Below are positions 455-39,769 of a stretch of 62,247 bases of DNA, one piece after another. Origin of the DNA: a virus; the IMG/VR virus record IMGVR_UViG_3300009285_004982; one strand, written 5' to 3'. The stretch's first letter is position 1, and the number at the start of each line of letters is the position of its first letter. The notes under the pieces are model-generated. The model had not been told where the DNA came from. It did not search any database and was given only the letters and a program-made list of their open reading frames with translations. A program made the position numbers and the translations under genes.

Positions 455-3208
455 ATGGACAATGGACATAAGCCAAGGGACATCCGTCCCTCCGTAGATC
501 TAAAAGATTTTGACACCGACACAGAAGACAAACCCACCCAGCCATACAATTTCCAGCTCATCGAAAACGATTACATTCGCAAACTAGAAGAAGACGATGT
601 CCGTCAATTCGCTCTCCCCGGAATAATACCGGGCGCCAAGAGCCAGGAAATCCAGGACGACCCGGACGGAACATGGCGCAATATCACCACAGGATTGCCG
701 GAGGGCGTCATCCCGACCGTCGATGATTTGCGGAAATGGAAAGACGCGAGTTACCAACGATACGAGATCGATCCAAATTATCGCGGGCTGATCGACGGGT
801 TTCTTTTCTTCACCATCGGGCAGGGAATGAAAATATCTCCGCTCGATGAATCACAGGAAGTCCGGGATTATGTCAGCGAGTGGATAAAAATAAACGAGTT
901 CGACGGACGTGATCGGGATCTCGTCGAGAAATTTCTGAAAGCCGGGGAATGCTATGTCCGATTTTTCACCACGGATGCCGATGGCCGCGCAGCGAAATAT
1001 CCGGCGATGCGTCTTTACAGCTACTGGGAAATAAATAAGATTGTCCGTGATCCGAAGAACAGGGAAAATATTCTTGAATTTCACCGGCCCTATCGAAACA
1101 GTAAAGGCGATGCGGATATCGAAATAATCCCAGGCGGCGAAATGATCCATATAAAATTCGGATGCAAAGACGACGAACGCGGAAAACCTCCGTTTGCCTC
1201 GATCATGAAGTTCTGCGAATATTATTCCGATTGGTTATTTAACCGTATCGTGCTCAACCGAACGAAGACGGCATTCTATCTTGAGATGATTGTTAAAGGT
1301 TCCCCGGCGGACGTGACGACGGCGGATAACGCGACGCCCGATAGCACGCGGGTAGGACGCGGCGGTAAGAAAATAAAACGGATGCCGAAACCGGGAACGG
1401 TATTGGTTCACAATGACGCCGTAGAGTACAAATGGCTCTCGCCGGATGTAAAAGCCGATGATGCGAAAGAAGATGGACGCGCCATTCGCATGGCAATTCT
1501 GGCCGGAGCCCAGGCACCGGAATTTCTATTGGGCGATGCCAGCCAATCGAACTATTCGTGCCATGATGAAAAAACGGAACTTTTAACAAAAAGAGGATGG
1601 GTCAAATATTCGGATATTTCTTCTAACGATAAAGTTGCAACAATGAATCTAGAAACAAATCATTTGGAATTTCAAAAGCCAAATAAAATTATAATTAATC
1701 GATACGACGGAGAAATGATAAAGATAAAATCACGAAGCAATGATTTACTTGTGACACCAAACCATCGGATCATTGGTACAAGAGAAATATTAACAAGAAC
1801 AGGAGGACGTCAAGCCCCATTGTTGAGAACAGGCCAAGTAAGAGATTGGGAATTTTTTGAAGCGGAAGAACTTTTGAAGCATAGATCATATTGGATCGTT
1901 CCAACAAAACTCGATTTACCGAAACCAAAAGACATGATTTCGTCTGTGACAATTGATGGGATTAATTCAAAGTTTAATGGATTCAACGATCATATCAGGA
2001 ATCCGAGATCGATTGAAATAGAAACATGGCTTCGATTCCTTGGTCATTGGTTAACAGATGGATGGATAACAAAAGATGGGATATCTACTCACTATATGGT
2101 TGGTATTTCCCAAAGACCTGGGGAAGTCGCTAATCGCATAAGGGAAAATTTGCAGAAAATGCCAAATTTTAAATTTCACGAATGTTTAAACGCAGATGGA
2201 ATGATTGCATTCCAGGCAAACGATAAAGGATTACACGGATGGCTCGAAACAAATTGTGGTTATGGAGCACTTAATAAAAGATTACCTAGTTTTTTTAGGA
2301 ATTTAGATAAAGATCAATCCCTCATTTTTTTGGATGCTCTTATTGATGGGGATGGCACTCGATATCCAAATGGGAGCATGCATTATAGGTCTTCCAGCAT
2401 TAAATTAATCGACGATGTGATGGAATTAATTTTAATGGCCGGATTTTTTCCTCAGCCACCATGGTCAAATTCAAATCCGAACGAATGTATGACGATTCCA
2501 ATTCGATATTATGACAAAAAACATATTAATCCGAATACGGAGGTGTCGCTTGAATATTATCATGGAGATGTATGGTGTGTTTCTGTTGATAACGAATCTA
2601 TCGTGACGAGAAGAAATGGAATGATTGCAATTACCGGGAATAGCACGATGATTGCCCAGAATCCGTTTGTACGCAAGATAGAGTATCTTCAGGATTTCAT
2701 CGAATATTACGTTTGCGATATATTCAAATGGGTTTTGAATTATGCGATACAGAATAAATTTCTTCCCTCGATATCGCAAGAGACAATTATGCGCGAGAAA
2801 GCTCATGACGTGACGCTCGTTCGACGGATGAAGAAATGGTTTGATTTCAAAGAGGCGTATGACAGCAACGGGAATATCGTCGTCAAAGAAAAAGTTCCGA
2901 CGAAAATAGATATCGATGTTAACTGGCCGCCGCTCATTGCCCAGAACATGCTGCAGGATTCTCAGGCCTATCAAATCCACCAGGCGATGGGTATCGTCTC
3001 GAACGAGACACTTGCACAGAAACTAGGATACGATTGGGAAGATGAACAGCGAAAGATGGAACGGGATGTGAATCAGGCAAAGGCGGATGACGCTGACATT
3101 GACGATGAGGAAGAAAAGAGAGACGAGGAAATAAAGAATCCGTTCTTAAAGAAGGAAGCGAATGCTTCCAAGGACGACGAGAAAGAAGACAGCGATGCCG
3201 ACGCTTGA
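455..3208 (+). CDS. Portal protein interrupted by an in-frame intein (1559..2641)
   Basis: 917-aa ORF directly after terL with RBS AAGGGGA and an acidic C-terminal tail. Exteins total about 556 aa. The insert is bounded by SNYS|C...TGN|S. Confidence 0.75.
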   Translation: MDNGHKPRDIRPSVDLKDFDTDTEDKPTQPYNFQLIENDYIRKLEEDDVRQFALPGIIPGAKSQEIQDDPDGTWRNITTGLPEGVIPTVDDLRKWKDASYQRYEIDPNYRGLIDGFLFFTIGQGMKISPLDESQEVRDYVSEWIKINEFDGRDRDLVEKFLKAGECYVRFFTTDADGRAAKYPAMRLYSYWEINKIVRDPKNRENILEFHRPYRNSKGDADIEIIPGGEMIHIKFGCKDDERGKPPFASIMKFCEYYSDWLFNRIVLNRTKTAFYLEMIVKGSPADVTTADNATPDSTRVGRGGKKIKRMPKPGTVLVHNDAVEYKWLSPDVKADDAKEDGRAIRMAILAGAQAPEFLLGDASQSNYSCHDEKTELLTKRGWVKYSDISSNDKVATMNLETNHLEFQKPNKIIINRYDGEMIKIKSRSNDLLVTPNHRIIGTREILTRTGGRQAPLLRTGQVRDWEFFEAEELLKHRSYWIVPTKLDLPKPKDMISSVTIDGINSKFNGFNDHIRNPRSIEIETWLRFLGHWLTDGWITKDGISTHYMVGISQRPGEVANRIRENLQKMPNFKFHECLNADGMIAFQANDKGLHGWLETNCGYGALNKRLPSFFRNLDKDQSLIFLDALIDGDGTRYPNGSMHYRSSSIKLIDDVMELILMAGFFPQPPWSNSNPNECMTIPIRYYDKKHINPNTEVSLEYYHGDVWCVSVDNESIVTRRNGMIAITGNSTMIAQNPFVRKIEYLQDFIEYYVCDIFKWVLNYAIQNKFLPSISQETIMREKAHDVTLVRRMKKWFDFKEAYDSNGNIVVKEKVPTKIDIDVNWPPLIAQNMLQDSQAYQIHQAMGIVSNETLAQKLGYDWEDEQRKMERDVNQAKADDADIDDEEEKRDEEIKNPFLKKEANASKDDEKEDSDADA
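1559..2641 (+). mobile_element. Class-1 intein (361 aa) with a LAGLIDADG homing-endonuclease domain
   Basis: Cys1 (CHDEKTELLT), block B LLVTPNHRI (TxxH), two LAGLIDADG-like motifs (LRFLGHWLTDGW and FLDALIDGDGT), blocks F/G DVWCVSVDNESIV...GMIAITGN, then Ser+1. The segment is visibly more AT-rich than its flanks. Confidence 0.8.
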
Positions 3209-5243
3209 TATTCCTCTCCTAACCCAGAAGATAAGCGCCCGATATCCAGCGGTGCTGGCCAATCCAAAACATAAGGCGGATCTTATCGGCTTGATCAAGA
3301 AAGGGAACGAGGACAAGGCCGTTATTTATGCGAAGGATATTCTTGATCGGAAACCAAACCTGAAAGCCCATAATAAGATCGCCGTCGATCAACGATTACA
3401 ACGGCGAGAGTGGATGATATTCCAAATTGAAGTCGAGAAAACATTGAAAGATATCTACAACACACTGGCCGACAAAGTTAGTAAATTGCTCACCAACGCA
3501 GCGGATGATTCCGGTATTATTCCGTTCGCGAAATCAAGACACTTACTGAAGAGGATTCGTGATCTTGTTTATGAATCATATTCGGAAATTACTGTCCTTG
3601 TCAAAAGCGCGGTTAGGAAATCAATCAAAGACGGACTTTTCCAAACAGGAGACGCGGCCCAAGTTGGTGCTGATTATGCCCAGGAAGAAACAGATTTACG
3701 ATTTCCTGACGATCATGTAAATCTGGATTTGGTGGAAGCACCTGTCAAACCTGGGATGTTAAAGACGAGCGGCGTCTTCCAAAAGATATTTAACCGTGTG
3801 AAAAAGATGCGGATTGAGAAAGGCCTTTTCCCATTCAAGCCCAGGCCGCGTCAGATCGGCGGTTACGCGACAGGCCAGCCGCTCAGTCGCCTCATCTGGG
3901 ATGTGCGCCAATCTCATCTGAGTAAGATGCGAACCACGGTGGCCAATGGAATAGCCCAAGGGCGATCCGCCATCTCCGTCGCGAAAGATATCGAGAAATT
4001 TACCAGGGCTGGTCTCGCCGCACAAGCGAAAACGATTGGACGAACGTCCATTACTCCTTCCGGCCCTGGGATTTATGCCTCGTCGTATAAGAACGCGCTT
4101 CGTGTCGCCCGCACGGAGATGAACTCGGCTTATGTCTCGGCCCAGCTTGAATACGTGAAGCAGAAGGGGTATCAGGTTCAGTGGCATATAAATCCTGAGG
4201 CATGCCCGTTATGTGAACCACGAGACGGTAAGATATACGACCCAGAAGATGCAGATATACCTCTCCATCCAAACTGTGTTACGGAAGACACATTAATTTT
4301 GACATTGAAAGGTTCAATTAAAATATCAGAATTATGTGCGGGAGATATGGTCTATGGAAAATCTGGTTATCCAAGAAAAATTACGAAAGTTCATAAGAAT
4401 CGGTTCGATGGGTTTATCTATGATATGAATGGTTTAAAAATCACAGGAAATCATTCCCCATTTCTTTACAAAAGGGGATGGGTCAATGCGGAGAATATCA
4501 CAGAGAGGGATAAAATATTTAGGGCTGAATCGATTATGGTGGAAAAACACGGGGACGATTTTCCAACCAATTTTCATAAGCCAATCCGCTTTTATAATAT
4601 CTTGAACTCTTTTTTTTCTGGAATAATGCCATCCGCCGCCATGAATTTCAATACCAGTTTTTTCACTTGGAATCGCAAGATCGATATTAAATTTCCCAAC
4701 AGCCATGTTGATGATATGGGGGATACTATAAAGATCGAGAAATCGGCTCATTTCAATTTCTCCATGCGTTGGTTTCATATATTTTTCTTTAGATTTCGCC
4801 TGTTTGCACAATACCTCATATGGTCTTTTTACGCCCCTTACAGCATCATGGGCGTTTTTAACTATATGGGCACGTTTGGCAGGGCTATACCTTGTCCAGC
4901 TCAATTTCCCAGCTTCGGACAAAGATCTCCATCTAAATCCAAATTTCAAAAATCTATCAGTGATACATTTCCGGCTGATTCCTTCGATTTTGGATATATC
5001 AAGAATGCTTTCCCCGTTCATATGCCTTCGATGGAAATCATGGACGTTGAATCTGATCATTTTTTTCGACATGGAGACATTCTGTATAAGATTGTGCCTG
5101 TCAAATTAAAAAAAAATAAGTTTTCTGGTTATGTTTATAATATTACTGTCGATGAAGATGAATCTTATTGGGCCAATCGAATCCTTGTTCATAATTGTTC
5201 ATGCTGGGTAAGTACATTCATTCCCGGTCTGAGCGAAGAATGA
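3162..5243 (+). CDS. Head morphogenesis protein (Mu F / SPP1 gp7 family) interrupted by an in-frame intein (4275..5195)
   Basis: ARTEMNSAY...CPLCEPRDGKIYDPEDADIPLHPN | intein | CSCWV reconstitutes the family HPNC(R/S)C motif. The gene follows the portal gene. An alternative start is ATG 3195. Confidence 0.75.
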   Translation: MLPRTTRKKTAMPTLDIPLLTQKISARYPAVLANPKHKADLIGLIKKGNEDKAVIYAKDILDRKPNLKAHNKIAVDQRLQRREWMIFQIEVEKTLKDIYNTLADKVSKLLTNAADDSGIIPFAKSRHLLKRIRDLVYESYSEITVLVKSAVRKSIKDGLFQTGDAAQVGADYAQEETDLRFPDDHVNLDLVEAPVKPGMLKTSGVFQKIFNRVKKMRIEKGLFPFKPRPRQIGGYATGQPLSRLIWDVRQSHLSKMRTTVANGIAQGRSAISVAKDIEKFTRAGLAAQAKTIGRTSITPSGPGIYASSYKNALRVARTEMNSAYVSAQLEYVKQKGYQVQWHINPEACPLCEPRDGKIYDPEDADIPLHPNCVTEDTLILTLKGSIKISELCAGDMVYGKSGYPRKITKVHKNRFDGFIYDMNGLKITGNHSPFLYKRGWVNAENITERDKIFRAESIMVEKHGDDFPTNFHKPIRFYNILNSFFSGIMPSAAMNFNTSFFTWNRKIDIKFPNSHVDDMGDTIKIEKSAHFNFSMRWFHIFFFRFRLFAQYLIWSFYAPYSIMGVFNYMGTFGRAIPCPAQFPSFGQRSPSKSKFQKSISDTFPADSFDFGYIKNAFPVHMPSMEIMDVESDHFFRHGDILYKIVPVKLKKNKFSGYVYNITVDEDESYWANRILVHNCSCWVSTFIPGLSEE
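4275..5195 (+). mobile_element. Class-1 intein (307 aa) lacking a recognisable sense-strand endonuclease domain
   Basis: Cys1 CVTEDTLILTLKG, block B LKITGNHSPF, blocks F/G GYVYNITVDEDESYWANRILVHN, then Cys+1. The central part is low-complexity on the + strand. Confidence 0.75.
4434..5072 (-). CDS. Vsr/DUF559-like PD-(D/E)XK endonuclease (putative homing endonuclease) encoded antisense inside the Mu-F intein
   Basis: 212-aa ORF, codon-aligned antisense to the intein frame. Core motif KFNIDLAIPSEKTGIEIHGGGWH...DWLMKIGWKIV, with an HTH-like N-terminal region. No obvious RBS. Confidence 0.55.
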   Translation of the reverse strand: MSKKMIRFNVHDFHRRHMNGESILDISKIEGISRKCITDRFLKFGFRWRSLSEAGKLSWTRYSPAKRAHIVKNAHDAVRGVKRPYEVLCKQAKSKEKYMKPTHGEIEMSRFLDLYSIPHIINMAVGKFNIDLAIPSEKTGIEIHGGGWHYSRKKRVQDIIKADWLMKIGWKIVPVFFHHNRFSPKYFIPLCDILRIDPSPFVKKWGMISCDF

Positions 5244-5349
5244 AACCGCAATGCCCGATCTGTGGAGAAGAATTTGATATCGAAGATAGATGCCCGAATG
5301 AAGACATTGAAGGGAATCACAGTTAAAGGATAACAAATAGGGTGTTAAT

Positions 5350-5568
5350 ATGACCGAAGACAATAGGTGGTGTTTTAAATTTCCTAAACCATTAAGTAAA
5401 TCAAACACGCGAAAAATGATTGGATTTATTTCCAACGCTATATGGCAATTTTATGAAAAGGTGGGAAACCCATTAACAAAATTAGAAATTCATTATCCAG
5501 ATGGTTCTGGGGAATCAATGATAGATTGTTTCACTGAGCCCGTAAAAGAAACGGATCAAGACAGATAA
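5350..5568 (+). CDS. Hypothetical protein
   Basis: 72-aa + strand ORF, no recognisable motif. Confidence 0.4.
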   Translation: MTEDNRWCFKFPKPLSKSNTRKMIGFISNAIWQFYEKVGNPLTKLEIHYPDGSGESMIDCFTEPVKETDQDR

Positions 5569-7640: not shown

Positions 7641-8396
7641 ATGCCAGAAATAAAATATGGACTTTTTAAAAAAACATCAGTTACAAAAGAATTTAATCCG
7701 AACCATGATTCGGACGGGAAATTCGGAAGCGGAGGCGCGGGATCAGGTAGCAGCGTCGGGTCTGGCGGTAGCAGTGGAGGGGCATCGGGCGCAAGTTCAG
7801 TCGGCGGATCTCCCGGTATTGCTGGAGGATCTGCCAGTGAGTTTTCCTCAGACGAATACAATCAATTTAACCGGCAAGTTCGGCAAACGCGAAGTCCTGA
7901 AACCTACGATGCTGTCCAGGATTATCAATCAAGCGCTACTGGATATCAGTCGACAAATTCTTATCTTCGCGGAAGTTCAAGCATGAGTCCAGCCGAACGC
8001 AAAGATGCGGATAGAATAACAAAGGGTCTCGATAAAGCTTTTGATAGAGCTCCCGCATTAAATCGAGATATCCTTGTTCATCGCGGTGTTGATGTAGATC
8101 GATTTGGAACTTCGAACGCGAATGATTTGGTAGGTAAAACATTAACGGATCGCGGTTTCGTTTCAACATCGGCAACAAGAAATGTGGCTAAAAATTTCTC
8201 AAAGAAATCAAATCCGGCGTATATGGAAATATCTGTACGTCGTGGTACAAAAGTTCTAACCCCGAATGGAATTACGAGCTCCAATAGATTCAGGGGAGAA
8301 AGAGAAATTCTTTTGAAGAGAAATTCTAGTTTCAAAATAACGGGTTCAAGGAAAGACGGAGCCTACACCGTTATACAGGCAGATCATGTCTCTTGA
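7641..8396 (+). CDS. ADP-ribosyltransferase, R-S-E (C3/VIP2/iota-like) class, with an N-terminal Gly/Ser-rich linker
   Basis: Catalytic triad motifs in the canonical order: ILVHRG (Arg), GFVSTSAT (STS), FRGEREILL (ExE). About 45-aa G/S-rich tract after an N-terminal FNPNHDSDGKFG motif. The 3' end overlaps the scaffold gene. Confidence 0.75.
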   Translation: MPEIKYGLFKKTSVTKEFNPNHDSDGKFGSGGAGSGSSVGSGGSSGGASGASSVGGSPGIAGGSASEFSSDEYNQFNRQVRQTRSPETYDAVQDYQSSATGYQSTNSYLRGSSSMSPAERKDADRITKGLDKAFDRAPALNRDILVHRGVDVDRFGTSNANDLVGKTLTDRGFVSTSATRNVAKNFSKKSNPAYMEISVRRGTKVLTPNGITSSNRFRGEREILLKRNSSFKITGSRKDGAYTVIQADHVS

Positions 8397-14079: not shown

Positions 14080-15054
14080 ATGAAAGAAATATGGGATTTA
14101 AAATCCATACGGGAAGCATCAACACGCTCGGAGTTCTATCAGTTTTTAAACGTGGGGCTAAAAGACCTCATGTTCAAGGCTTACAGAACGGCCAAAACGA
14201 CCTATCCGGCCATCGTCACATTCGAGGAATCGGATAAGGCGAAAGAAGGATATCCATCCACCGGTAACGTGGCCCTGCCGGAACAGGTTCTGGAAGGCGC
14301 TCCATTCATCGAGAGGACGATTCCGCCCGAGGATTTTGTTGAGGTCACAAATCATAAATATGGTGAGATCATTTCTATCACGGAAGAACTGATTGAGGAT
14401 GATAAGACCAACCAGATCAAACGGTTGCCGATGGATCTCGGAAATGCTCATGCGAAGAAAGAAGACAAAACAGTCTATTCGATCATCAATGGGAATCCGA
14501 CGATTTATGATGGTGGTGCGTTTTTCGCTCTGAATCATCCTGGTTATACGGGTGGAGCGGCCATCGCTGCGAACGATAACATTTACACGAATGTGACTCT
14601 CTCGGCTAATGCGCTCGCCGTCGCCCTCGGTATCATCGGCGGATGGACGGGACACTCGACGGAAGATCTTTTGGATGTCGTGGCCACGGCGCTCGTGGTT
14701 CCGACGAATCTTAAATATACAGCCAATCTCCTGACCAAGAGTGCATTTGCCCCATGGGCTTATGCGGCTGGAGCACTTGGTCCAGCGGCGACAACGGGAC
14801 AAGGAAAAAATGTGTTGGCCGAAGAAGGATTGGAAGTTATTTCATCTCCTCGTCTTGACGTGACATCAACAACCGATTGGTATATCAAAACTGACTTCGT
14901 CGGGATTCTATTCCAATGGAGACAGAAACTTGGTCTCTTTGAGGAACCGGAAGAAGCCGGAAGCCGGTTTGAGAGAGATGTGCGACGATGGAAATCGCGA
15001 AGCCGTTGGGCAACGAAGGTTCTCAACTGGCGCGGAATGTTTAAGGTTTCATAA
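14080..15054 (+). CDS. Major capsid protein (HK97 fold)
   Basis: 324 aa, RBS AAGGAGGAG. Contains PEQVLEGAPFIERTI...VTNHKYGEIISITEELIEDD, typical of Mu gpT-like / HK97-fold capsid proteins. Located after the scaffold and decoration genes. Confidence 0.7.
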   Translation: MKEIWDLKSIREASTRSEFYQFLNVGLKDLMFKAYRTAKTTYPAIVTFEESDKAKEGYPSTGNVALPEQVLEGAPFIERTIPPEDFVEVTNHKYGEIISITEELIEDDKTNQIKRLPMDLGNAHAKKEDKTVYSIINGNPTIYDGGAFFALNHPGYTGGAAIAANDNIYTNVTLSANALAVALGIIGGWTGHSTEDLLDVVATALVVPTNLKYTANLLTKSAFAPWAYAAGALGPAATTGQGKNVLAEEGLEVISSPRLDVTSTTDWYIKTDFVGILFQWRQKLGLFEEPEEAGSRFERDVRRWKSRSRWATKVLNWRGMFKVS

Positions 15055-22791: not shown

Positions 22792-23085
22792 ATGGCGGAA
22801 ATGACTGAAGCGGAAATCATAACTAAAATAAATTTAATCGATACAGCGATTGCGACCATCACTACCAATTTGGCAGCGGGCGGAAGCGGGGCCGTGGAGT
22901 ACGTTGATTATAGCATGGGAAGCAAAACTGTTGCCGGATCTCAGACATTGAAGCAACTCATGGAAGCAAGAAAATTATATGAAGATCTTTTAAGAAAAAT
23001 ACCTTCCGTAACAATGAGAGACCATGGATATAGCGTCAAGGATGGTAGCGGTGAAAATGAAACTGAATATGTCGGAGATGAGTGA
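22792..23085 (+). CDS. Putative head-tail joining protein (gpW-like)
   Basis: 97 aa, positioned at the start of the connector block. Helix - GG..V.Y....K - helix pattern. Confidence 0.35.
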   Translation: MAEMTEAEIITKINLIDTAIATITTNLAAGGSGAVEYVDYSMGSKTVAGSQTLKQLMEARKLYEDLLRKIPSVTMRDHGYSVKDGSGENETEYVGDE

Positions 23086-23086
23086 A

Positions 23087-23842
23087 TTAAATATGTTTCC
23101 ATATTTTACAAGAAATGATTTTAAATATATGAGATGCCTTAATTTTAAACATACGCATAAGATCGCATTGTCGCATTCCTGTTTCATAATATTTTCTTAT
23201 TTGTTTAACTTTGTGTTCTGTAAGTCTTGCTCGATAATGTTTTTCGCCATCAATTCCGCGACCTTTTATATACATATCATGAACATTATCCAACTGAGTA
23301 CCAAGAAACAAATGCGCCGGATTGCAACACGATGGATTATCACCGCCGGGGCAATTGTGGAGAACATGAATTCCTTCTGGGATTGGGCCGTTATGAATTT
23401 CATAAGAGATTCGATGCGAAAAGAGAGTAGAATGTTTTCCTTTTTTATAATCGCCCATTATTCCATAGCCATACGGCAATTTATTTCCAAGCCATATCCA
23501 GCATGTTGGTGTTTTTTTAATAAATTTCCAAAATCTTTTTTCTATTGGGAGTTTTACGGGACCTGTTTTTTTAAATGGTATTGATATCAAATGATCGAAT
23601 GCAATGCATTTATTATTTCCGCAAAAATTCATAATTGTATAGCGGGATTGAAGTGGTTGATTAAAAGTCCATATAATATTTCTAATCCATATTTTCGTTT
23701 TATTAATTTCTTTTTTTATATAAGGCCTATTCGAATCAATTGCGCCATGCCATTCCAAACATTCTCCATTTTGTTTAATCTTATCGGAGAAAAAGAGAAG
23801 AAATTCGTTAAAGCTTTTAAAATTGGTAGGATATTTCTGCAT
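23087..23842 (-). CDS. Free-standing HNH (HNH_3-type) homing endonuclease
   Basis: 251 aa on the minus strand in an AT-rich island. CWIWLGNKLPYGYG...FSHRISYEIHNGPIPEGIHVLHNCPGGDNPSCCNPAHLFLGTQLDNVHD. It has a second N-terminal half-domain CLEWHG...CGNNKCIAFDHL. Confidence 0.8.
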   Translation of the reverse strand: MQKYPTNFKSFNEFLLFFSDKIKQNGECLEWHGAIDSNRPYIKKEINKTKIWIRNIIWTFNQPLQSRYTIMNFCGNNKCIAFDHLISIPFKKTGPVKLPIEKRFWKFIKKTPTCWIWLGNKLPYGYGIMGDYKKGKHSTLFSHRISYEIHNGPIPEGIHVLHNCPGGDNPSCCNPAHLFLGTQLDNVHDMYIKGRGIDGEKHYRARLTEHKVKQIRKYYETGMRQCDLMRMFKIKASHIFKIISCKIWKHI

Positions 23843-38736: not shown

Positions 38737-39090
38737 ATGACGCCACCGCCTTCGTCGGTTAAAATACGATTCATGAATATTGTCGGCTCGATGGATAGGC
38801 CTGGCTGTATTATCTGGCCGAGATCCAGAACAAAAAGCGGATACGGGAAAATAGGATGGAAACAGTACAATTTCATCACATTCATGGATACGCATCGGCT
38901 GGCATGGATTATTTATAAAGGGCCAATTCCAAACGGTCTGCATGTCTGCCACCGGTGCAATTTTAAGGCATGTGTAAATATCAAACATTTGTACCTGGGA
39001 ACTCGATTCGACAATATGCAAGATGCGTCTAGGGATGGATTACTAAAGAAGAAAAGGAAAAATATTTCACTGGAGGTTTGCCATGATTGA
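38737..39090 (+). CDS. HNH (HNH_3-type) endonuclease
   Basis: CIIWPRSRTKSGYGKI...THRLAWIIYKGPIPNGLHVCHRCNFKACVNIKHLYLGTRFDNMQD. Confidence 0.7.
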   Translation: MTPPPSSVKIRFMNIVGSMDRPGCIIWPRSRTKSGYGKIGWKQYNFITFMDTHRLAWIIYKGPIPNGLHVCHRCNFKACVNIKHLYLGTRFDNMQDASRDGLLKKKRKNISLEVCHD

Positions 39091-39379: not shown

Positions 39380-39769
39380 GTGGGATGGCAGGCCGATAAT
39401 TACAGATCGCTGATCCGAAACTCAGAACGGACGAAGCTGGAAAATTCCCTGCTTCTTCTGATCCGGCAAAACCATCTCCCTGAGCCCGTTTCTCAGTTTA
39501 AGTTTTGTGCTGACCGAAAATGGGTGGCCGATTTTGCTTATCCGGAACAGAAGATCCTGATCGAGTGTGAGGGGGGGCTCTGGAGAAAGAACCAAGAGGG
39601 ACAGTGGGCGGGAGCCCATTCGTATCCCGGAGCCATTCTCAGGGATATTGAGAAATACAATCAGGCCGCCCTACTCGGCTACCGGTTATTTCGATTCACC
39701 GACTATCAGCTGAAAGACGGTTCGGCCATAGAAATATTAAAGAAAGCTCTTGAGTTGACGACGCGATGA
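39380..39769 (+). CDS. Vsr/DUF559-like PD-(D/E)XK endonuclease
   Basis: RKWVADFAYPEQKILIECEGGLW...AHS...RDIEKYNQAALLGYRLFRF. Confidence 0.6.
   Translation: MGWQADNYRSLIRNSERTKLENSLLLLIRQNHLPEPVSQFKFCADRKWVADFAYPEQKILIECEGGLWRKNQEGQWAGAHSYPGAILRDIEKYNQAALLGYRLFRFTDYQLKDGSAIEILKKALELTTR

Follow-up and report, generated by a model that had tools for sequence, protein, structure and literature searches.

Can one stretch of phage DNA encode a homing endonuclease on one strand and, on the other, a linker that the ribosome only has to read through? The locus described here raises this question. It lies in a 62,247-nucleotide stretch of viral DNA (IMG/VR record IMGVR_UViG_3300009285_004982), hereafter the window, from an uncultured phage that has no close GenBank relative: blastn of the locus against GenBank phages gave no match, and tblastn of the N-extein against the same set gave one distant match and no close intein-less allele. 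Based on profile searches, structural models and a comparison of related loci, we consider it very probable that this phage carries a mobile intein composed of two genes on opposite strands, namely Mu-F with its intein on the plus strand and a Vsr-like homing endonuclease on the minus strand, with splicing, expression and cleavage as predicted steps.

An intein in Mu-F and the gene on its opposite strand

The plus-strand open reading frame (ORF) 3162..5243 encodes 693 aa without interruption and contains no sense stop across the insert (Table 1). It reads ...DADIPLHPN/CVTEDTLILTLKG...ANRILVHN/CSCWV (slashes mark splice junctions), exactly as a first-pass annotation of the sequence had it, and excision of the 307 codons 4275..5195 restores HPNCSC, as was also proposed there. 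The insertion point is the conserved CxxC...HPN/CxC motif of Mu-F. The identity of the host protein follows from Pfam, with Phage_Mu_F (PF04233) matching residues 255-372 at 29.9 bits against a cut-off of 29.6, and from PHROG head-morphogenesis and minor-head families (E down to 1.5e-19). Within the insert, Intein_splicing (PF14890) matched with an E-value of about 1.6e-8 to 9e-8 (34.9 bits against a curated cut-off of 35.8), Hint_2 with 23.1 bits against a cut-off of 28.4, and Vint was matched as well. The Hint blocks that had been read in the insert are all present: Cys1, the TxxH of block B, the terminal His-Asn and Cys+1, the last two forming the C-terminal junction ...ILVHN/CSC. Across 36 homologous inteins, C1, H60, V287 and N307 are invariant and T57 and Y288 nearly so. 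An AlphaFold2 single-sequence model of the intein was uninformative (pLDDT 41.5).

Table 1. Positions of the host gene, the intein and the minus-strand gene in the window
Feature	Position	Strand	Details
Mu-F (head morphogenesis, minor capsid) N-extein	3162..4274	+	C-terminal end ...CPLCEPRDGKIYDPEDADIPLHPN; Pfam and PHROG
Class-1 intein, 307 codons	4275..5195	+	Pfam Intein_splicing, Hint_2, Vint
Intein Cys1	4275-4277	+	Sequence; 36 aligned homologous inteins
True dual-coding zone	4434..4535	both	Sense LKITGNHSPFLYKRGWVNAENITERDKIF (block B and next strand) opposite endonuclease C-terminus ...KYFIPLCDILRIDPSPFVKKWGMISCDF and stop
Putative homing-endonuclease gene, 212 aa	4434..5072	-	ATG 5072-5070, stop TAA 4436-4434
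Intein block B, ITGNH	4440-4454	+	Intein residues 56-60
Sense 'mirror' linker, about 179 codons	4536..5072	+	16% Phe, stop-free
Predicted Vsr-like (EDxHD, DUF559-type) nuclease domain, about aa 100-178	4539..4775	-	E105, D131, E142, H149, D158
Predicted N-terminal helix-turn-helix DNA-binding region, about aa 10-45	4938..5045	-	Profile matches, predicted helices
Intein block F, YVYNITVDEDESYWA	5130-5174	+	
Intein block G, NRILVHN	5175-5195	+	
Mu-F C-extein, CSCWVSTFIPGLSEE and stop	5196..5243	+	Sequence; junction recurs in relatives
Cys+1 of C-extein	5196-5198	+	

The 212-aa ORF opposite the intein stands in codon register with the sense frame, as (5070-3162) mod 3 = 0, and for its product a helix-turn-helix (HTH)-like N-terminus and a Vsr/DUF559-type core had been proposed. 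Both parts gained strong support from profile and structure searches. An exhaustive HMMER search found 1134 homologues of the antisense product (best E 1.9e-42), and the product keeps every residue that is invariant in this family (G80, D131, E142, H149, W170). The family profile matched solved DUF559, I-Bth0305I and Vsr structures, namely the PDB entries 3HRL (E 1.3e-8), 3R3P (E 2.1e-6) and 1CW0 (E 3e-4), which were found by the profile alone, as phmmer of the single sequence against the PDB returned only noise; word-indexed homologue searches gave no matches either, whether started from the antisense protein or from the alignment of sense inteins. For the N-terminus, the profile matched the HTH structures 2LVS (E 1e-5) and 2JN6 (E 2e-4) and the PAI subdomain of Sleeping Beauty, and helices were predicted at residues 10-18, 23-30 and 34-43; in relatives this HTH-type repeat occurs in one or several copies. 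The Pfam family REase_MTES_1575 matched the product with an E-value of 8.3e-7 and 29.4 bits, under the gathering score of 38.2.

The AlphaFold2 model of the antisense product reached a pLDDT of 90.3, and its top Foldseek match was I-Bth0305I (3R3P, E 6.8e-4), followed by 1VSR and 1CW0, each with a probability of 1.0. In a transitive alignment via the family profile to 3R3P, E105, D131, H149 and D158 are the equivalents of I-Bth0305I E170, D196, H213 and D222. Across the family D131 is invariant and H149 and E105 are nearly so, whereas the last Asp of the motif, which has an equivalent in the protein studied here, is not conserved. On the evidence of homologues and predicted fold, 4434..5072 is a real gene for a putative homing endonuclease with an HTH region and a Vsr-like, EDxHD-type nuclease domain. 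Its suggested similarity to the free-standing gene 39380..39769 held at the level of the superfamily, while close kinship was ruled out (BLASTP E 0.002 over 57 residues; that gene itself matches DUF559 with an E-value of 0.006 only). The minus-strand HNH gene 23087..23842 was considered as a second nested case in the window and rejected because the overlapping plus-strand ORF covers only part of it.

Start signals of the minus-strand gene in the family

Is the antisense layout a peculiarity of this phage? Members of the endonuclease family are present in phages and prophages across many bacterial phyla, including cultured phages of Salmonella, Aggregatibacter, Vibrio, Acinetobacter and Pantoea. 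In 118 of 120 sampled loci (79/80 viral, 39/40 genome), a long open host ORF contains the homologue in antisense orientation and in phase 0. Those host ORFs that were tested match Phage_Mu_F or Phage_min_cap2 together with Intein_splicing, and where junctions could be located the site is the same, H-x-x/C...N/C, with HPN/C..N/C(R/S)C recurring. In the commonest subtype, of which Salmonella phage BPS11Q3 is a member, the endonuclease ORF of ~250 aa spans nearly the whole intein of ~272 aa. Block B (TVTPNH) is mirrored by the endonuclease C-terminal motif YRVIRGDG, and in the common subtype the Shine-Dalgarno sequence and ATG of the endonuclease are the reverse complement of block F (HVYDLQ), so that sense GHVYDLQ reads CTGGAGGTCATAGAC-ATG on the opposite strand. 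In line with these start signals, block F of the common subtype is skewed in its codons: the His codon is CAT by 53 to 8, compared with 698 to 723 globally, and the Leu codon is CTC in 58 of 81 cases, compared with 26% globally. It is likely that the antisense layout is no rare accident but the usual condition in a large and ancient family, whose inteins and endonuclease genes have adapted to each other and form nearly complete antisense gene pairs.

In the present phage, no Shine-Dalgarno sequence precedes the endonuclease ATG at 5072, while other genes of the phage have one. A promoter and terminator scan around the locus found no more sites than in shuffled sequences, and no sigma-70-type promoter upstream of this ATG. 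As neither signal was found, expression of this copy is uncertain. The gene could be real in origin and yet no longer expressed or active here, with the intein as a fixed, vertically inherited passenger that needs only to splice. The missing start signals would agree with this, as would the identical Mu-F protein on 15 metagenomic contigs and the apparent vertical inheritance of some antisense Vsr-like cases (bioRxiv 10.1101/2025.01.02.630785). We nevertheless regard such a loss of function as unlikely. The ORF is intact and full-length with every family-invariant residue kept, whereas stops should build up quickly in a 212-codon antisense ORF that is not expressed. Moreover, in the closest relative (locus L128) TTGATT, a 17-nt spacer and TGgTATAAT, ending 5 nt before the endonuclease ATG, look like a leaderless design; thus, absence of a Shine-Dalgarno sequence need not mean absence of expression.

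Two reading frames under selection

How does a host gene survive a reversed gene in its middle? In the phase in use, a host-strand stop can arise from just three endonuclease codons, TTA and CTA (Leu) and TCA (Ser), all of which can be replaced synonymously, so that they are avoidable without any amino-acid change in the endonuclease. Because the two frames are codon-aligned and the stop-reading codons avoidable in this way, the host gene would survive. Indeed, the endonuclease gene contains 11 Leu and 16 Ser codons but not a single TTA, CTA or TCA, and the host frame is stop-free for that reason. Under the codon usage of the window (44% G+C), in which these three make up 3.5% of codons, the chance of finding none is about 5e-4 to 1e-3. 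As an internal control, the ordinary intein in this phage's portal gene, with its LAGLIDADG endonuclease in frame, has 18 such codons in 361. Across 54 distinct loci, stop avoidance gives a summed log10 P of -135.

An uninterrupted sense frame also bears on whether the intein is split. The first-pass annotation stated, rightly, that fractured genes carry a Vsr-like endonuclease gene between split-intein halves; these genes, mostly phage-derived sequence, exist in phage metagenomes, and their endonuclease gene occupies the site between motifs N4 and C2 at which inteins take up an endonuclease, just as in the present locus (Dassa et al. 2009, PMC2677866). By analogy, the two intein halves of Mu-F might be made separately and spliced in trans, with read-through of the linker being irrelevant. 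This is very improbable. Fractured genes consist of three coding regions on one strand, with a host that is truly broken by stops and non-coding spacers of 27-51 bases, whereas here the host ORF runs unbroken through all 693 codons, with the endonuclease gene turned round onto the opposite strand. In addition, an open sense frame in 118 of 120 relatives needs selection for read-through. A split gene was rejected because the sense frame has no stop.

Which of the two strands is constrained as protein? We counted the differences at sense codon positions 1/2/3 in related pairs. In the flanks, substitutions fall on the third codon positions of the host (N-extein 215/154/392; N-intein 161/124/355; C-intein and C-extein 61/42/132). 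In the endonuclease core (408/117/232) they concentrate on sense position 1, which is the third codon position of the endonuclease, and this switch of strands occurs at the gene borders. In keeping with the earlier reading that the central sense region holds no endonuclease motif, no Pfam or PHROG match was found for the sense translation opposite the endonuclease gene, and the sense linker 4536..5072 appears unconstrained as a protein. Divergence is lowest in the dual-coding zone (168 differences in 514 codons in the related pairs), which has no clear strand bias. In a codon-by-codon map the endonuclease gene does not sit neatly 'between' the splicing blocks, as its last ~30 codons overlap block B and the strand after it. 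It had been inferred that the same DNA has to serve as an endonuclease gene and, read from the other strand, as a linker free of stops; the comparative data bear this out and show that selection maintains this double use.

It is scarcely credible that the antisense ORF is a chance open frame facing a sense-encoded domain of unknown type: long in-phase antisense ORFs do occur elsewhere in the window, but the example 14158..14802 (214 codons) has no family match, in contrast to the 1134 homologues and confident nuclease fold of 4434..5072, and the seemingly conserved motifs of the sense alignment (VPxSxEDFHGDG...G.IDIV) mirror YNIDxA and AVEIFGGxWH of the endonuclease codon by codon, so that, with substitutions falling on the endonuclease third position and the sense stretch matching no Pfam or PHROG family, this explanation is effectively refuted. 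Just as hard to sustain is an open sense frame that is a by-product of the base composition or codon usage of the endonuclease gene and not of selection for the host gene: TTA, CTA and TCA are rare anyway in G+C-rich phages and some loci have a per-locus P of only 0.2 to 0.4, but the window has the G+C content and codon frequency given above, A+T-rich loci such as L047 and L058 reach a per-locus P of 1e-9 to 1e-10, the sampled loci (118/120) all use the one phase that lets the endonuclease avoid these codons with its amino acids unchanged, and in the two free-standing relatives that were checked the opposite strand is not open.

A proposed homing cycle and its relation to known systems

We propose that a two-strand mobile intein of this kind would work as follows. 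On the plus strand, Mu-F would be read straight through the 307-codon intein; the ribosome would pass a protein-meaningless, stop-free linker, which would be discarded with the intein, and the predicted self-excision of the intein would rejoin HPN-CSC and restore Mu-F. The middle of the intein would at the same time serve, as reverse complement, as an independent minus-strand gene for the 212-aa endonuclease, which is predicted to cut intein-less Mu-F alleles near the junction of CCTCTCCATCCAAAC and TGTTCATGCTGGGTA in co-infection. Repair after the cut would copy in the intein together with the endonuclease gene. In the sense precursor, the 179-residue linker with 16% Phe might hinder folding.

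In phages, free-standing homing endonuclease genes are known that neighbour their target gene. Two loci (L054 and L129) resemble this arrangement: a free-standing family member lies just downstream of, and convergent with, an intein-less Mu-F gene, which fits the capture of a free-standing gene by an intein. In the phage studied here, in contrast, the gene lies inside its target, which can tolerate it only through the intein and a mirror frame free of stops.

The arrangement has precedents and is not categorically new; the intein described here is another member of the known antisense-endonuclease inteins. Antisense LAGLIDADG endonucleases in inteins are credited to Gorbalenya 1998 and Gogarten 2002, and antisense Vsr-like endonucleases were described in actinophage inteins by Gosselin, Arsenault & Gogarten 2025 (bioRxiv 10.1101/2025.01.02.630785). 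As in those actinophages, we find a full (cis) intein with a Vsr-like antisense endonuclease and no recognisable sense-encoded domain; their hosts include minor capsid proteins, as here, and the authors, too, propose that an endonuclease gene that once stood alone was captured. Their survey covered PhagesDB actinophages only and called the architecture rare, whereas here it was found in 118/120 sampled loci, in many phyla and in an uncultured phage host. They also describe the second ORF as typically outside the splicing domain, while here the endonuclease tail overlaps block B, and their text makes no mention of a ribosome binding site or promoter.

More distant parallels exist. In the Synechocystis/cyanobacterial DnaX intein, attributed to Gorbalenya 1998 and Gogarten 2002, the host frame likewise encodes the splicing domain while another frame that overlaps it encodes the endonuclease, and frame-dependent selection marks the endonuclease frame as the constrained one (bioRxiv 10.64898/2026.09.14.751524). 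That endonuclease, however, is of the LAGLIDADG type, lies in the cellular gene dnaX and is described in this 2026 preprint as a +2 ORF, whereas the present one is Vsr-like and codon-aligned antisense in a phage structural gene. I-Bth0305I, the EDxHD prototype (Taylor et al. 2011, PMC3239194; PDB 3R3P), shares the order of an N-terminal HTH-type region and a C-terminal Vsr-like nuclease; it resides in a group I intron of recA, and its sequence identity to the present endonuclease is about 20%.

No gene call for the endonuclease is on record on the contigs of this phage, and three records of cultured phages show the Mu-F CDS as the sole annotation across the homologous gene. The 'conserved motifs' of the sense strand are mirror artefacts that could mislead those who search for domains. 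The family offers a set of putative Vsr-like homing endonucleases as tools, along with many compact Hint domains that tolerate a 180-residue junk insert.

In summary, the locus offers a clean example from nature of DNA that is used on both strands over a long distance (about 640 nt). A working enzyme has to be specified by one strand, whereas the other only has to avoid stops, and the genetic code allows this free of cost in one specific phase. The free-standing relatives beside intein-less Mu-F genes support a model in which the splicing domain came first and the endonuclease was captured later. From an antisense position, a homing endonuclease in a structural gene would be able to draw on its own expression signals, apart from those of the structural gene.

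An endonuclease gene antisense to the Mu-F intein

The window has a phage-like character. Nearly all its long ORFs (overall G+C 44%) lie on the plus strand. Among them, the Mu-F ORF encodes a 693-aa product that reads ...CPLCEPRDGKIYDPEDADIPLHPN ↓ CVTEDTLILTLKG...YVYNITVDEDESYWANRILVHN ↓ CSCWVSTFIPGLSEE followed by the stop codon (arrows mark splice junctions here and below), and its N-extein, the host part upstream of the intein, falls in the PHROGs head-morphogenesis and minor-head families. Inside the intein, the minus strand carries a 212-aa ORF that is codon-aligned with the Mu-F sense frame. When the ORFs, the insert and this minus ORF were rechecked, every coordinate of the first-pass annotation proved correct. 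The gene is anatomically an intein-containing Mu-F with an antisense gene, and we predict that the intein splices.

Features of the window and of selected relatives
Feature	Coordinates	Strand	Matches and context
SPP1-type portal ORF	455..3208		
Intein in portal ORF	1559..2641	+	361 codons; weak in-frame LAGLIDADG_3 match, E 2.3e-4
Mu-F ORF	3162..5243	+	Phage_Mu_F, residues 255-372, 29.9 bits (cut-off 29.6); Intein_splicing, E 9e-8; Hint_2 and Vint at N-terminus of insert
Class-1 intein	4275..5195	+	
Antisense endonuclease ORF	4434..5072	-	REase_MTES_1575, E 8.3e-7, below gathering score
ADP-ribosyltransferase gene	7641..8396	+	PF03496, E 1.6e-20
Control antisense ORF	14158..14802		No family match
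ORF overlapping HNH_3 gene	23024..23584	+	No family match
HNH_3 endonuclease gene	23087..23842	-	251 aa; E 6.6e-10
Likely free-standing endonuclease gene	38737..39090	+	HNH_3, E 1.9e-11
Likely free-standing endonuclease gene	39380..39769	+	Weak DUF559/Vsr-type, E 0.006
L116 host ORF (Scytonema MAG)	1588..4377	-	
L118 host ORF	2443..4539	-	Phage_min_cap2, E 3.5e-104
L054 free-standing endonuclease	3986..4651		Convergent, overlaps Mu-F 3' end
L054 Mu-F	4578..5447	-	Intein-less, ...APAHPRCSCRV...
L129 free-standing endonuclease	3501..4337		Convergent, overlaps Mu-F 3' end
L129 Mu-F	4300..5562	-	Intein-less, ...CIPLHPLCRCRY...

The sense translation of 4434..5072, 16% of which is Phe, matches nothing in Pfam or PHROGs, in line with the earlier remark that the central sense codons hold no endonuclease motif. 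The accompanying reading of the minus ORF as an HTH-like plus Vsr/DUF559-type protein was borne out by homology, profiles and predicted structure. Searched exhaustively with HMMER, 1.84 billion cluster representatives yielded 1134 homologues at E <= 1e-3, of which 363 reach 1e-10 or lower; the best has E 1.9e-42 and 40% identity over residues 7-199. The N-terminus is HTH-like in an alignment of 30 family members, which also shows the motif AAHDAVRG and, as nuclease core, YNIDxA...AVEIxGGxWH, with G80, D131, E142 and W170 invariant and H149 nearly so; the window protein has all five. The family profile matched the DUF559-type endonuclease-like protein 3HRL (E 1.3e-8), I-Bth0305I (3R3P, E 2.1e-6) and Vsr (1CW0, E 3e-4), and its N-terminus matched HTH domains. 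Using the same alignment, AlphaFold2 modelled the 212-aa protein with a mean pLDDT of 90.3. In a Foldseek search of the PDB, the top match was the catalytic domain of I-Bth0305I (E 6.8e-4, TM-score on target 0.65), with Vsr (1VSR and 1CW0) next; all had probability 1.0. Transitive alignment pairs E105, D131, H149 and D158 with E, D, H and D of the EDxHD motif, which was defined for I-Bth0305I. The control antisense ORF, which the first-pass annotation had cited, lacks a family match. The antisense gene is real; its product is predicted to cleave the intein-less allele, and the element to be capable of homing. Several homologues (P0065, P0105, P0133, P0149, P0084 and P0061) are longer, with several N-terminal HTH modules in tandem preceding the nuclease domain, and some inteins accordingly reach ~320 aa.

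The window phage is rich in homing-type nucleases. The portal intein has the junctions ...SNYS↓CHDEKTELL...MIAITGN↓STMIAQ, and the two likely free-standing endonuclease genes adjoin. We rejected the minus-strand HNH_3 gene, which has plus-strand genes on both sides, as a second nested case, because the overlapping plus ORF spans merely part of it. Downstream of Mu-F, among the head genes, is the ADP-ribosyltransferase gene.

Selection on the two strands

With the two frames in this register, TTA, CTA and TCA are the antisense codons that read as stops in the sense frame. In the codon-usage comparison proposed earlier, none of these occurs in the minus ORF (11 Leu and 16 Ser codons), against 3.5% of the 14,226 codons in the window's plus-strand genes, where they make up 26% of Leu and 20% of Ser codons; the chance of such an absence is ~1e-3 given the amino acids and 5e-4 overall. 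As a control, the 361 codons of the ordinary portal intein contain 18 codons of this in-phase antisense stop type. When codon usage was taken from the Mu-F N-extein of each locus itself, the log10 probabilities of avoidance summed to -135 over 54 distinct loci (median P per locus 0.019, A+T-rich loci down to 1e-9 to 1e-10). These data show that the host frame is kept open by selection.

Differences by sense codon position in nine moderately related pairs
Region	Position 1	Position 2	Position 3	Codons
N-extein	215	154	392	1144
N-intein	161	124	355	678
Endonuclease tail/intein overlap	64	25	79	514
Endonuclease core	408	117	232	1652
C-intein and C-extein	61	42	132	346

Differences are most frequent at sense position 3 in the exteins and in both arms of the intein, the pattern of a sense-coding region, while the endonuclease core has its maximum at sense position 1, which is the third position of the endonuclease codon. 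From this shift of the peak, the antisense protein is under purifying selection in the core, across which the sense frame is constrained solely to remain open. The overlap zone has the lowest divergence and no clear position bias, as expected under constraint on both strands. A prior run with 13 pairs gave the same picture. Together, position counts and stop avoidance support the earlier interpretation that one strand encodes the endonuclease and the other a stop-free linker. A seemingly conserved sense motif, VPxSxEDFHGDG...G.IDIV (columns ~130-165 of the alignment of 36 homologous inteins; window ~4620..4700), is merely the codon mirror of the active-site motifs AVEIFGGxWH and YNIDxA and could misdirect motif searches in the linker.

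In three pairs of loci (L022/L055, L010/L011 and L030/L036), the endonuclease region has diverged less than the flanking N-intein and N-extein, its own synonymous positions included (L022/L055: 5 differences in 176 codons versus 18 in 80), which hints that inteins have recently exchanged this segment.

Spread, start signals and possible origin of the nested gene

Is the nested arrangement found beyond the window? Scanning IMG/VR with the family alignment yielded at least 491 confirmed loci. Among the best 80 of these, an opposite-strand frame is open over the whole endonuclease match in 79, extending 279-1151 codons, and the codon-aligned frame is the best opposite-strand frame in all 80. Their flanks read ...(P)xHPN↓C(V/L/I)(L/P)G...TPNH...[endonuclease, antisense]...HVYDLQ...S(S/H)N↓C(R/E)C..., with the insertion point at the window's Mu-F site. 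Among bacterial and archaeal genomes, sampled at one per GTDB species, 40 loci turned up across many phyla, including Bacteroidales, Actinomycetota, Chloroflexota, Gammaproteobacteria, Firmicutes, Saccharibacteria, Planctomycetota and a Scytonema cyanobacterium; 39 are nested in phase 0. All eight representative host ORFs scored Intein_splicing, together with Phage_Mu_F in five (L004, L019, L108, L082 and L083), Phage_min_cap2 in one (L118) and only further Hint-type domains in two (L094 and L115). The Phage_min_cap2 protein carries its intein, with nested antisense endonuclease, at ...GLMGWN↓CVVGE; the family is therefore not limited to PF04233 Mu-F hosts. By tblastn, homologues are present in 64 GenBank phage records, among them Salmonella, Gordonia, Aggregatibacter/Haemophilus Aaphi23, Vibrio, Acinetobacter and Pantoea phages. 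The closest homologue (P0001, 40% identity, on a 1-kb contig) belongs to the window's intein subtype and has a similar C-extein, ...SILCHN↓CSCYLTTVIPGVS. The single L116 host ORF seemingly contains two successive inteins, the first ending ...YANRILVHN↓CPYC and the second, at ...PPLHPS↓CVTGDS, holding the antisense endonuclease.

An identical Mu-F protein occurs on 15 metagenomic contigs, a groundwater metagenome among the sources; gene calls on the displayed contigs (L124-L127) comprise the 693-aa sense ORF alone, and no call for the 212-aa protein is on record for contigs carrying the window's Mu-F. In the three GenBank records inspected (Gordonia phage Vivi2, Salmonella phage BPS11Q3 and Aaphi23), the homologue is likewise unannotated, the opposite-strand Mu-F/head-morphogenesis gene being the sole CDS there.

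In the window, the Leu codon in G-L-KITGNH, read in reverse complement, supplies the endonuclease stop (TAA, 4436-4434). The final ~30 codons of the gene (...KYFIPLCDILRIDPSPFVKKWGMISCDF) lie opposite block B and the next strand (LKITGNHSPFLYKRGWVNAENITERDKIF), and its ATG faces the His codon of FR-H-GD (5070-5072), some 19 codons upstream of block F. In the commonest subtype, many loci have the endonuclease stop across from the Leu in position 2 or 3 of the intein (HPNC-V-L), and the ORF of ~250 codons then covers nearly the whole intein of ~272 codons; the family C-terminal motif (Y/H)R(V/M)I(R/W)G(D/N)G mirrors (L)TVTPNH. In this subtype the ATG faces the block F His and is preceded by (C/T)TGGAGGTC(A/G)TA(N)AC. 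Sense GHVYDLQ reads CTGGAGGTCATAGAC-ATG on the other strand, and G-H-V-Y-D-L-Q thus encodes a GGAGG Shine-Dalgarno sequence and start codon antisense. By a strict pattern, 29 of 65 distinct viral loci have this arrangement (L009, L013, L014, L017, L018 and others). Codon usage at the block F His and Leu is heavily skewed: over 98 distinct loci, the His preceding VYDL is CAT 53 times and CAC 8 times, compared with 698 to 723 elsewhere in the same ORFs, and the block F Leu is CTC in 58/81, compared with 26% elsewhere.

Shine-Dalgarno sequences precede many genes of the window phage; none precedes the endonuclease ATG at 5072 or that at 5060, and a scan for consensus promoters turned up no site upstream. 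A perfect TTGACA does occur 26 nt ahead of the ATG, with no good -10 element following at proper spacing. In the closest relative, a 17-nt spacer separates TTGATT from TGgTATAAT, which ends 5 nt before the ATG; judged by sequence, this start region looks leaderless. The window's copy may be expressed independently.

Two family members, L054 and L129, are free-standing; the neighbouring Mu-F genes keep the HPxCxC motif intact, and the strand opposite the endonuclease gene is closed in both. The nested form may descend from such genes: an endonuclease gene standing alone next to the gene it targets, and already in opposite orientation, would then have been captured by an intein at the target site. 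The arrangement fits this capture model, proposed by Dassa et al. (PMC2677866) and Gosselin et al. (10.1101/2025.01.02.630785).

Relation to known systems

In the fractured genes described by Dassa et al. (2009, PMC2677866), the Vsr-like endonuclease gene differs in lying between split-intein halves on the same strand, with the host gene broken. Gosselin, Arsenault and Gogarten (bioRxiv 10.1101/2025.01.02.630785) reported actinophage inteins with antisense LAGLIDADG or Vsr-like endonucleases, minor capsid proteins among the hosts of non-canonical types, an in-frame region without recognisable structure and a Vsr-like product matched to 1CW0 and 3R3P; they termed such architectures rare. They attribute the antisense LAGLIDADG type to Gorbalenya (1998) and Gogarten (2002), and their main text mentions no ribosome binding site or promoter. 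A 2026 preprint (bioRxiv 10.64898/2026.09.14.751524) documents frame-dependent selection for an out-of-frame endonuclease in a cyanobacterial dnaX intein. The window element therefore belongs to a kind already known and recently described. What appears to go further than these reports is the breadth of the family with its universal codon phase, the quantified stop avoidance and strand switch in the substitution pattern, and the placement of the endonuclease's start signals within splicing block F and of its C-terminus within block B.
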